Shown: in pieces, positions 15,481 to 20,071 of the stretch | Numbering within the stretch: position 1 is the stretch's first letter | Layout of the letters: the number at the start of each line of letters is the position of its first letter | Origin: Escherichia coli | Lineage (GTDB): Bacteria > Pseudomonadota > Gammaproteobacteria > Enterobacterales > Enterobacteriaceae | Length of the DNA stretch: 34,633 nucleotides | Assembly: GCF_003334815.1 (NCBI RefSeq) | Contig: NZ_QOWO01000038.1 | Direction: 5' to 3' (one strand) | Made by a program: the position numbers and the translations under genes | Notes under the pieces: model-generated | What the model was told of the DNA's origin: nothing | Seen by the model: the letters and a program-made list of their open reading frames with translations, nothing else | Databases searched by the model: none

Positions 15481-16134
15481 TTATATCCCTTCTTCACTCT
15501 CTTTTTTCGCTTCTGCCTTCTCGATTTCACGATACCAGCGCGGATGGTGTTTCTTCGCCCAGCGACGACTTACCTTCCCTTCGATCATCCCTTTAATCGA
15601 TCCTTTCACCCAAAATGCCATATACATATGGATCAGGATGGCGTGGATCAGGATGATACCCGCAGCCGCGTGGATCAGCAGGCTGTAGCGAACAACCTGC
15701 ATCGGGAAGTACTGCGCAAAGTACGGACGCCAGATAATCACCCCGGTCACCAGCAGCACGAAAATCATGCTCATGATCGACCAGAACATCATCTTTTGCC
15801 CGGCGTTGTACTTACCGACATCCGCCACTTTATGCTCATTGCCTTTCAATACTTCGACAATGTTCAACAGCCACGGAATATCTTTCTTATCCGGGATGTT
15901 GTGATGCACAAAACGCACAAACATAAACATCAGTGCGACGAAAATCGCAATGCCGAAGAACGGGTGCAAAATGCGTCCCATCTGCGGCGTACCGAAGGTT
16001 TGCGTCAGCCATTGCAGCGTCGGGAAGAAGAACGAAATCCCGGACAGCGCCACCAGGAAGAAGCAAATCACCACGGTCCAGTGACAGGCGCGATCAATAA
16101 ATTTGGTGCGCACAATCATTTTCGACTTACTCAT
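15481..16134 (-). CDS. fdnI: Formate dehydrogenase-N gamma subunit (cytochrome b556)
   Basis: ORF-track frame 15481-16176; start placed at ATG 16134 ([20 protein letters not shown]...), 217 aa; overlaps the fdnH 3' end by 8 nt. Confidence 0.9.
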
Positions 16135-17011
16135 GATGATCCTCCTCGTCATCGTCCACTTCCTTATTCGGGCCAATACCGATGTAGTGGAAAATCAACC
16201 CGGCAAAAGTGGCAATAAAGCCAGCCGCTGCCAGCGGTTTCAACGCGCCTTTCCACAGGCTTACCGAGGTGTCGATCTTCGGATCTTTCGGCAGACCGTG
16301 ATACAGCTCCGGCTGATCGGCGTGATGCAGCACGTACATAACGTGCGTACCACCGACCCCTTCCGGGTTGTAGACGCCAGCATGTTCGTAACCACGCGCT
16401 TTCAGTTTCGCCACGCGCTGTTCCGCCAGCTCCAGCATCTCCTTCTTGGTGCCGAAGTGGATAGCCCCGGTCGGACAGGTTTTCACACAAGCCGGTTCCT
16501 GGCCGACGCTGACGCGATCGACGCAGAGCGTGCATTTATATACCCGGTTATCCTCTTTGTTGAGGCGCGGAATATTAAACGGACACCCGGCAATGCAGTA
16601 ACCACAGCCGATGCAGTTTTCCGACTGGAAATCGACAATCCCGTTAGCGTACTGAATGATTGCACCAGCAGACGGGCACGCCTTCAGGCAGCCGGGATCT
16701 TCACAGTGCATACAGCCGTCTTTACGGATCAGCCACTCCAGCTTGCCGTTCTGTTCGGTTTCGCTAAAGCGCATCACCGTCCAGGACTTGGCGCTCAGAT
16801 CGGCGGGGTTATCGTAAACCCCGACGCAGTGCCCCACTTCATCACGGATGTCGTTCCACTCCGAACACGCCACCTGACAGGCTTTACAGCCGATACAGGT
16901 GGAAACGTCGATAAGTTTTGCGACTTCTGCTTTGTAATCACGCACCTGAGAAGGCGGCGTGATGGAGTTAGTTGCGGACCTTTTGATAATGTCCTGCGTT
17001 TCCATAGCCAT
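16127..17011 (-). CDS. fdnH: Formate dehydrogenase-N beta subunit (4Fe-4S ferredoxin-type)
   Basis: 294-aa ORF with multiple CxxCxxCxxxCP iron-sulfur motifs. Confidence 0.95.
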
Positions 17012-17023
17012 CTGTTCGCCCCC

Positions 17024-20000
17024 TTACGCCTTCTCGATGTTGACTAAGAACGCTTTATATTCCGGCGTTTGCGAGTTTGCATCACCGACATTCGGCGTCA
17101 GAGTGTTAGCGATATAACCTTTACGCGCGACACCCTCAAAGCCCCAGTGGATTGGAATACCCACCGTTTCAACCTGCTGACCATTTACATTCAGCGGTTT
17201 CAGACGACGCGTTACCACAGCCACCGCGCGGATAAAGCCACGCTTGCTGGAGACAGTGACACGATCGCCATTATTAATGCCTTTCGCCGCCGCCAGCGTT
17301 TCGCTGATTTCCACAAACTGTTCCGGCTGAGCAATTGCGTTGAGCAATGCGTGCTTGGTCCAGGTGTGGAAGTGCTCGGTCAGACGATAGGTCGTACCCA
17401 CATACGGGAACTGCTCTTTTTTACCCATCCGCAGCGCGTCTTGTTCATACAGACGAACAACCGGGTTAGACACCACGTTCGGATGCAGCGGGTTAGTGCC
17501 CAGCGGCGTTTCAATCGGCTCGTAGTGTTCCGGGAACGGACCTTCCGCCATTTTGTTGATGGCAAACAGGCGTCCCATCCCTTCCGGCTGCATGATAAAC
17601 GGCCCGGTTGGCGTACCCGGTGCGGCATTGCCGAAGTCAGGAATATCGTTACCCGTCCACTTGCTGCCGTTCCACTGGATCAGCATCCGTTTCGGATCCC
17701 ACGGTTTACCGTTGATATCCGCCGAAGCACGGTTGTACAGCACGCGACGGTTGAGCGGCCACGCCCAGGCCCATCCCAGCGTATTCCCCAGACCGGACGG
17801 GTCGGAGTTATCGCGGTTAGCCATCTGGTTGCCCTGCTCTGTCCAGCTACCGGTGTAGATCCAGCAAGAAGATGCGGTTGTACCGTCATCACGCAGATGC
17901 GCAAAGCTACTCAGCAACTGACCTTTCTTCGCAATAAGCACGCCATTAGCGTCATAGAGATCTTCCAGCGCGTAGCCGTTGTTCTCTTTAGCCACTTCGT
18001 CAGATTGCGGTTCGTGCGGCTGCTTGTAGTTCCAGCTCATCTTCATCAGCGGTTCTACGCCTTTACCACCTTCGGACTGGTACAGCTCGCGCAGATGATG
18101 GTAGATACCCGCCAGAATTTCACCGTCGTTACGCGCTTCGCCCGGCGCGTCCTGACCTTTCCAGTGCCACTGCAACCAGCGACCGGAGTTAGCGATAGAA
18201 CCATCTTCTTCAGCAAAGCAGGTCGAAGGCAGACGGAATACTTCAGTCTGAATAGACGCCGGATCGACATCGTTCGACTCACCGTGGTTCTGCCAGAAGG
18301 TAGAGGTTTCAGTCACCAGCGGATCGATAACCACCATGTACTTCAGCTTGCTCAGGCAGCTCACCACTTTGTTTTTGTCCGGGAAGGACGCAACCGGGTT
18401 AAAGCCCTGGCAGAAATAACCGGTGACTTTGCCTTCATCCATCATGTTGAAATACTTGATGACGTCGTAGGTCTGGTCCCACTTCGGCAGCCAGTCATAG
18501 CCCCAGTTGTTCTCTTTCTGCGCGGCATCGCCATAGAAAGATTTCATCAGGCTAACGAAGAACTTCGGATAGTTGCTCCAGTAGTTCACCTGATCAGCCA
18601 GCGTCGCTTTCGGCGTGTTCGCTTCCAGATACGACTGCAAATCAACCTGTTTTTCTGACGGCAGCGTCAGATAACCTGGCAGGCTGGTAGAGAGCAGGCC
18701 TAAGTCAGTCAAGCCCTGAATGTTGGAGTGACCACGCAATGCGTTCACGCCGCCACCGGCCATACCCATGTTACCGAGCAGCAACTGGATCATCGCCATA
18801 GTACGGATGTTCTGCGCACCCACAGTGTGCTGCGTCCAGCCCAGCGCGTACAGGAAGGTGGTTGTGCGATCCGGTGCGCTGGTGGAGGCCAGCACTTCAC
18901 ACACTTTCAGGAAGTCGGCTTTTGGCGTACCGCAGATGTTTTCAACGACGTCCGGCGTGTAGCGGGAAACGTGCTCTTTCAGCAGGTTCCACACACAGCG
19001 CGGATGAGTCAGTGTTTCATCGCGTTTCGCATAGCCGTTTTCATCGAACTGATAGTTCCAGGACGATTTATCGTATTGACGTTTTTCAGCGTCGTAGCCG
19101 CTGAACAGACCGTCTTCGAAAGCAAAATCATCACGCACCAGCAGGCTGGCGTTGGTGTAATGCTTAACGTATTCGGCGTTGATTTTGTTGTTTTCGATCA
19201 GGTAGCGCAAAACGCCAGACAGGAACGTAATGTCCGTACCGGAACGAATAGGCGCGTAAATATCCGCCACAGAAGCGGTACGCGTAAAACGGGGATCGAC
19301 AACGATCAAGGTTGCGTCGTTGTTGTTTTTCGCTTCCATCGCCCAGCGGAAACCGACGGGATGCGCTTCAGCAGCGTTACCGCCCATCACCATCACGACG
19401 TTAGCGTTTTTGATATCCACCCAGTGGTTGGTCATCGCACCGCGACCAAATGTTGGAGCAAGACTTGCTACCGTTGGTCCGTGTCAGACGCGCGCCTGGT
19501 TGTCTACCGCCAGCATCCCGAGGGAGCGGGCAAATTTCTGGGTCAGCATCCCGGTTTCGTTGCTGGCACCGGAGGCACACAGCATACCGGTAGAAAGCCA
19601 ACGGTTTACCGTTACGCCCTGCTCGTTCTTTTCAATAAAGTTAGCGTCACGGTCAGCTTTCATCAGCTTCGCAATACGGGAGAATGCTTCTTCCCAGCTA
19701 ATGCGCTGCCATTTGTCAGAACCTGGCGCACGATATTCCGGGTAGCGCAGACGGTTTTCACTGTTGACGTAATCCAGCAAACCGGCCCCTTTCGGGCACA
19801 GCGCACCACGGCTTACCGGATGATCCGGGTCACCTTCAATGTGATAAATCGCTTCTCTGGCGTTTTTTGCGCCATCACCCAGGCTATACATCAATAGCCC
19901 GCAACCTACGGAACAGTATGTGCAGGTGTTACGGATCTCTTTAGCGCGTAATAATTTGTAGTTTCGCGCCTGAGCCAGTGCTTGCTTCGGGGCAAAGCCC

Positions 20001-20071
20001 AATGCCGCTACTGTTGTTCCAGCCATACCGCCCGCGCAGATTTTAAAAAATTGTCTGCGACTGACGTCCAT
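17024..20071 (-). CDS. fdnG: Formate dehydrogenase-N alpha subunit, selenocysteine-containing molybdoenzyme with Tat signal peptide
   Basis: Two ORF-track pieces (19484-20071 and 17024-19435) are in the same frame, separated only by TGA at 19484-19486 (minus strand) and 16 sense codons. The N-terminus has the twin-arginine motif SRRQFFK. Read as one 1015-codon gene with UGA = Sec. Confidence 0.93.
19440..19483 (-). other. SECIS element directing selenocysteine insertion at the fdnG UGA
   Basis: Bacterial SECIS lies immediately 3' of the UGA. The mRNA here contains a GCAAGUCUUGC mini-helix resembling the fdhF-type SECIS apical region. Fold not computed. Confidence 0.55.

Follow-up and report, generated by a model that had tools for sequence, protein, structure and literature searches.

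The in-frame UGA of an Escherichia coli fdnG gene as a selenocysteine codon followed by a SECIS hairpin

The 34.6-kb stretch of Escherichia coli chromosome analyzed here (contig NZ_QOWO01000038.1; hereafter the window, to the whole of which all coordinates refer) encodes on its minus strand fdnG, the gene for the alpha subunit of formate dehydrogenase-N, and within that gene lies an in-frame TGA. A mechanical list of open reading frames (ORFs) divides the gene into a 195-amino acid ORF (19484..20071, minus strand) and an 803-amino acid ORF (17024..19435, minus strand). Translation of 17024-20071 (minus strand) places both ORFs in one frame of 1015 sense positions, in which the sole internal stop, at codon 196, is the TGA at 19486-19484. 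Between this TGA and the ATG taken as the start of the 803-amino acid ORF lie 16 sense codons, HGPTVASLAPTFGRGA (19483-19436); from that ATG, 803 codons remain open in phase. A preliminary description of this DNA had the two pieces sharing one frame and parted by the TGA at 19484-19486 and 16 sense codons, which is the arrangement found on translation.

17024 to 20071, minus strand: fdnG, formate dehydrogenase-N alpha subunit; 1015-codon frame plus terminal TAA, 3048 nt
19484 to 19486, minus strand: UGA codon 196, assigned as selenocysteine (active-site molybdenum ligand) by alignment to X196 of 1KQF_A, fdoG, and fdhF

The identity of the gene was established at the DNA, profile, and structural levels. 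Several complete E. coli genomes have in RefSeq a gene that is 100% identical in DNA and is named "fdnG: formate dehydrogenase-N subunit alpha" (protein WP_014639908.1), and every one of the 5426 complete E. coli genomes has the gene at 80% coverage or more. The protein, with X entered at position 196, scores 1623.1 bits against the NCBIfam equivalog TIGR01553 (cut-off 814.2), matching profile positions 1-1009 of 1009, and its N terminus carries the twin-arginine motif SRRQFFK. It is identical at 1014 of 1015 positions to chain A of PDB entry 1KQF (1KQF/1KQG, "formate dehydrogenase, nitrate-inducible, major subunit"). The sole change relative to the crystallized K-12 FdnG is L342F, with F in the window and L in 1KQF, far from the selenocysteine (Sec) site. 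Formate dehydrogenase-N is nitrate-inducible and faces the periplasm; the fdnG product is its catalytic molybdopterin subunit.

The internal TGA aligns with residue 196 of 1KQF_A, a nonstandard residue printed as X, and in a three-way alignment the TGAs of fdnG, K-12 fdoG (codon 196), and K-12 fdhF (codon 140) share one column within the motif ARV-U-HGP(T/S)VA. The TGA thus occupies the position of the Sec or Cys molybdenum ligand of the solved enzyme (X196 of 1KQF_A, U196 of FdoG, U140 of FdhF). Alignment with the FdnG and FdoG proteins had been proposed as a check on the claim that the UGA is a selenocysteine codon and not a disruption; the TGA falls at the conserved Sec position, and the claim is borne out by this alignment together with the RNA element described next.

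Within the ORF and immediately 3′ of the in-frame UGA, cmscan returned the only Rfam match at gathering thresholds in the whole window, the selenocysteine insertion sequence (SECIS) family SECIS_3 (RF01989). The matched 59-mer is numbered from the codon before the UGA, and the UGA itself takes positions 4-6 (19486-19484). Its parts are as follows, the lower-helix arms being taken from the Rfam consensus structure and the minimum free energy (MFE) fold.

19431 to 19489, minus strand: SECIS including the UGA, Rfam SECIS_3 (RF01989); cmscan 84.3 bits against a gathering threshold of 63, E = 7.7e-19, model positions 1-59 of 59
19455 to 19472, minus strand: apical mini-helix GGUAGCAAGUCUUGCUCC, 59-mer positions 18-35, GG-U-AGCAA-GUC-UUGCU-CC; putative SelB-binding part
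19474 to 19483, minus strand: lower helix, 5′ arm, 59-mer positions approximately 7-16
19441 to 19449, minus strand: lower helix, 3′ arm, 59-mer positions 41-49

The apical mini-helix comprises 7 base pairs, a bulged U at 19470, and a G-U-C loop at 19464-19462, and its 18 nt fold as ((.(((((...))))))) at -4.5 kcal/mol. In fdhF, the bases contacted by SelB are the loop G-U and the bulged U (U17, G23, and U24), and the fdnG element likewise has a G-U loop and a bulged U below the apical stem (G26, U27, and U20 of the 59-mer). The mini-helix begins 11 nt after the UGA, and work on fdhF gave an 11-nt spacing rule. The distance from the UGA to the loop is 19 nt, which fits the 16-37 nt between UGA and apical loop in bacterial SECIS elements (PMC10778597). 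The preliminary description had proposed GCAAGUCUUGC, just 3′ of the UGA, as a mini-helix consistent with a SECIS. A SECIS-consistent hairpin is indeed there, as the 84.3-bit SECIS_3 match shows, but GCAAGUCUUGC (19468-19458, minus strand, 15 nt 3′ of the UGA) holds no more than the uppermost four or five base pairs and the loop; the functional mini-helix (19472-19455) extends beyond it to the pairs G18-C35 and G19-C34 and the bulged U20. Folding of the 45 nt after the UGA, which had been suggested as a check, gave a hairpin at -13.8 kcal/mol.

The same description had called for comparison with the fdoG and fdhF elements, and both agree. Relative to K-12 fdnG, with its known Sec196 and SECIS (Berg et al. 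1991; 1KQF), gene, codon, and hairpin are the same, and the SECIS is without any difference. K-12 fdoG, a paralogue at another locus, carries an identical 59-mer with the same SECIS_3 score of 84.3 bits, and Sec is at codon 196 in both genes, whereas gene-wide the nucleotide identity of fdoG to fdnG is 74.9%, the protein identity outside a frozen block around this element is 76.9%, and only 61% of identical residues are encoded by the same codon. The fdhF SECIS, the reference bacterial SECIS, belongs to a sister family, SECIS_2 (RF01988), separate in Rfam from the SECIS_3 of fdnG. The two architectures are alike, each consisting of the UGA, a lower helix, and GG, a bulged U, 4 or 5 bp, a loop containing G-U-C, and CC, and the folding energies of the 45 nt are similar (-14.5 kcal/mol for fdhF and -13.8 kcal/mol for fdnG). 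They differ in sequence: the fdhF mini-helix is GG-U-UGCA-GGUC-UGCA-CC, with stem UGCA/UGCA and loop GGUC, whereas fdnG has the stem AGCA(A)/(U)UGCU and the loop GUC (or AGUCU). The peptide after Sec is HGPSVAGL in fdhF and HGPTVASL in fdnG.

A hairpin lying within a coding sequence might be incidental to the protein sequence, and under one alternative it is: the UGA would be read through without the Sec machinery, by near-cognate Trp or Cys insertion or by a selC-independent route. Evidence bearing on this alternative came from a scan of one genome per species with the pattern TGHCAYGGNCCNACNGTNGC, in which wobble positions were left free and Sec and Cys codons were both allowed, and which returned at least 120 loci. 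Of the 120 loci listed, 97 were FdnG-like and open in frame, of which 95 had TGA and 2 a Cys codon, and the TGA loci came from Enterobacterales, Pasteurellaceae, Pseudomonas, Burkholderiales, Acidobacteriota, Actinomycetota, and other groups. Pairing statistics were computed on an alignment of 59 distinct 59-mers. The apical helix is 98.8% paired. Pairing over the whole structure is 91%, and sliding the 3′ partners by 1-3 columns lowers this value to 26-49%. At pair 21:33 the combinations seen are G-C, A-U, and G-U, and at pair 24:30 they are A-U, C-G, and G-C; columns 21, 33, 24, and 30 are all third codon positions (Val, Ala, Leu, and Ala), and the double changes are synonymous. Compensatory base-pair change across homologues was thus found for the apical helix, and none of 500 shuffles reached the observed covariation score or the number of double changes. 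No variation is seen at G26 and U27 of the loop or at the bulged U20. Entropy is zero at the third position of codon +4 (ACG) and of codon +7 (AGU/GGU), both free at the protein level, as against 1.3-1.9 bits at comparable four-fold sites in the flanks. The 16 residues between the TGA and the ATG are also invariant across phyla, as HGPTVA.LA..FGRGA. The hairpin is more than a by-product of the protein, because compensatory changes and invariant bases fall at synonymous third positions, and these alignments show that the apical part is constrained beyond what the protein sequence gives.

The two FdnG-type enzymes with Cys, from Klebsiella sp. BIGb0407 (L075) and a second locus (L119), share the active-site motif, here C-HGPTVAALAPTFGRGAMTN, with a TGT or TGC codon in place of the TGA. 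The loop motif is lost in exactly these homologues: their loops are CUC or CGC versus GUC, 1-3 of the 7 apical pairs are broken, and the fold differs. Neither gave an Rfam SECIS match, whereas three distant Sec-containing loci did.

Several observations count against reading the element as a SECIS. In the scan pattern, the first two codon positions of U/C-HGPTVA are fixed, and therefore only the wobble positions and the 3′ arm are free of ascertainment bias. The lower helix is 83-85% paired in the 59 sequences with few double changes, and its Rfam, MFE, and RNAalifold registers are indistinguishable, each approximately 83-85% paired. The Cys comparison consists of two sequences only, among the matches listed. 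Folding energy gives z-scores of -0.77 (59-mer), -1.70 (the 45 nt that follow the UGA), and -2.06 (18-nt mini-helix), with 9 to 39 of 200 shuffles folding as well. The fdhF SECIS, among the best characterized, likewise has a nonsignificant z-score (-1.30). Folding energy was dropped as a criterion, since the z-scores of neither fdnG nor fdhF are significant, and support was therefore taken from covariation and the covariance model.

Two further groups of loci were seen in the survey. A divergent formate dehydrogenase-like gene (L110:3939-3997, minus strand) has a TGA at the Sec position and the apical GGCAGGUCUUGCC hairpin, and no Rfam SECIS match at the gathering threshold was found at this locus. 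An uncultured Enterobacterales metagenome-assembled genome (L049) encodes two FdnG-like Sec genes 5.9 kb apart on one contig (2247-2305 and 8161-8219, plus strand), each with a separate SECIS.

The similarity between fdnG and fdoG is concentrated in one block.

19419 to 19489, minus strand: 71-nt block without a mismatch between fdnG and fdoG, the longest such run in the two paralogues

Beginning at codon 195, this run spans the SECIS; the second longest measures 36 nt. The 68 nt from the TGA are exact, and end at the same base, in 18 of 26 compared fdnG/fdoG-type loci, the 18 belonging to seven other enterobacterial genera (Enterobacter, Citrobacter, Klebsiella, Superficieibacter, Yersinia, Photorhabdus, and Providencia), with third-codon identity in the 150-nt flanks of 0.36-0.72. 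Gene conversion between fdnG and fdoG was considered as a sufficient cause of the 71-nt identity and ruled out, because conversion within a genome cannot yield identity across genera and the block is identical in all seven. The constraint reaches approximately 36 nt 3′ of the mini-helix, 12 nt past the Rfam model, and some of this length is accounted for by the lower helix's 3′ arm. Little weight attaches to the last 12 nt (ACC AAC CAC TGG GT), where just three sites are synonymous, each with a commonly preferred codon, and across phyla the wobble positions in the 3′ part of the block vary normally. That this 3′ part has a further role in Enterobacterales beyond the known minimal SECIS is a tentative suggestion that we think unlikely to hold; the parts that could possibly be involved are the lower-helix arm, an extended helix enclosing the UGA, and the approximately 20 nt beyond. 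If it did hold, the role might be to occlude the UGA from release factor 2 (RF2), to time SelB release, or to provide a second RNA or protein contact. The long constraint is compatible with known extended SECIS helices, and it leaves the Sec assignment unaffected.

Readthrough independent of the SECIS can now be weighed. It is favored by the nonsignificant folding energy and by a paper entitled [quoted passage not shown] (PMC3636253), the abstract of which concerns growth in excess selenite. It leaves unexplained the compensatory changes and invariant bases at synonymous third positions, for which the protein sequence cannot account, a block frozen in 18 of 26 loci against flanking synonymous sites that are 36-72% identical, and the loss of the loop motif exactly in homologues with a Cys codon. 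Berg, Baron and Stewart reportedly found in 1991 that the fdnG alpha subunit was no longer made when selB or selC was mutated or when synonymous changes disrupted the mini-helix. We regard such readthrough as highly improbable.

Smaller still is the probability that the TGA is a genuine nonsense mutation making fdnG a pseudogene in this strain. The mechanical ORF list does split the gene, and many public records carry its halves separately, but a TGA is also present in K-12 fdoG and fdhF and in the 95 FdnG-like loci of many bacterial groups, it coincides with the catalytic Sec position and has an above-threshold SECIS after it, and the 819 codons downstream are intact and, except for L342F, identical to the functional crystallized enzyme. 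An equally negligible chance attaches to there being two genes, for a 195-amino acid protein with a twin-arginine translocation signal and an Fe-S domain and an 803-amino acid molybdopterin protein that assemble after translation, as split database annotation and the ATG opening the 803-amino acid ORF might suggest, given that the solved structure is a single 1015-residue chain and that the protein-level invariance across phyla of the 16 codons from TGA to ATG would be unexpected for an intergenic spacer.

It is thus almost certain that the window contains an intact fdnG whose TGA at 19486-19484 encodes selenocysteine (Sec196), with a SECIS hairpin 3′ of it. Published work on fdnG and fdhF suggests how it would be decoded. 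The mRNA 3′ of the UGA, inside the coding sequence, would fold into the bacterial SECIS hairpin, and its apical mini-helix would be bound by the elongation factor SelB carrying Sec-tRNA(Sec). With the UGA in the ribosomal A site, the tethered ternary complex would outcompete RF2 and selenocysteine would be inserted, after which translation would run for 819 further codons; the Sec residue would then presumably ligate molybdenum through its selenium. In bacteria, SelB with Sec-tRNA(Sec) on the apical mini-helix delivers Sec at the UGA in competition with RF2 (PMC10778597). That the fdnG UGA is Sec and is followed by a stem-loop is already known, a textbook case published in 1991 and experimentally characterized. 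A review (PMC13188914) cites two papers whose titles say as much: one by Berg, Li, Heider and Stewart (1991, J Biol Chem 266:22380), on opal UGA as the codon for selenocysteine in fdnG, and one by Berg, Baron and Stewart (1991, J Biol Chem 266:22386), on the mRNA stem-loop without which the fdnG UGA is not decoded.

The genes directly downstream complete the fdnGHI operon, a context that distinguishes fdn from fdo.

16127 to 17011, minus strand: fdnH, Fe-S beta subunit; NCBIfam TIGR01582, 482 bits against a cut-off of 335, and RefSeq annotation
15481 to 16134, minus strand: fdnI, cytochrome b gamma subunit; NCBIfam NF007558, 487 bits against a cut-off of 339, and RefSeq annotation

FdnI is matched best by this formate dehydrogenase-N gamma model (NF007558, 487 bits) and scores 268 bits, under the cut-off, with the formate dehydrogenase-O gamma model NF007924. 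The neighborhood in six checked E. coli records, maeA-adhP-yddM-fdnI-fdnH-fdnG-yddG-yddL-narU-narZ, is the E. coli chromosome order, and the genes flanking fdn in the window, yddG and yddM, agree with RefSeq records. The genes selA, selB, selC, and selD, expected in all E. coli, are absent from the 34.6-kb window.

Other observations concern the wider surroundings. At approximately 21445-23090 (plus strand), yddL (a truncated porin) and an adjoining leucine-rich-repeat gene are flagged as pseudogenes, incomplete or frameshifted, in matching RefSeq records, and narZ has an internal stop in strain M217 and is intact in strain 52F4. Positions 1-158 of the window have no alignment to the digH-dosC spacer of strain 52F4, which is nearly identical elsewhere, and the matching bases in strain LCP30S3_I3 are the annotated end of an IS4-like ISVsa5-family element beside dosC; the window apparently starts inside the end of an insertion sequence. 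In Rodentibacter rarus, a thiamine pyrophosphate riboswitch (L007:5501-5589, minus strand) lies approximately 2.9 kb from an fdnG-like gene and is unrelated to the Sec finding.

The preliminary description had further predicted that automated annotation would call a pseudogene here. For RefSeq and its PGAP pipeline this is not so: one intact coding sequence named fdnG, with no pseudogene flag, is present in 6 of 6 E. coli records (M217, 52F4, and four others). The prediction comes closer for naive gene callers, whose output deposits the two halves separately.

19487 to 20071 and 17027 to 19435, minus strand: halves of fdnG deposited separately in a public protein collection

The 195- and 803-amino acid halves stand as separate "proteins" in public collections, on 1000 contigs or more apiece, and some bear wrong names; one 195-amino acid fragment, EFN8991448.1, is misnamed "sulfate ABC transporter substrate-binding protein." Misannotation of selenoproteins is presented as a general problem in a recent review (PMC13188914). 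Nothing new about Sec decoding follows from the present locus, and the result matters only as quality control: this fdnG is intact and is not to be flagged as a disruption or a pseudogene, and its split halves in public collections illustrate a real annotation hazard.

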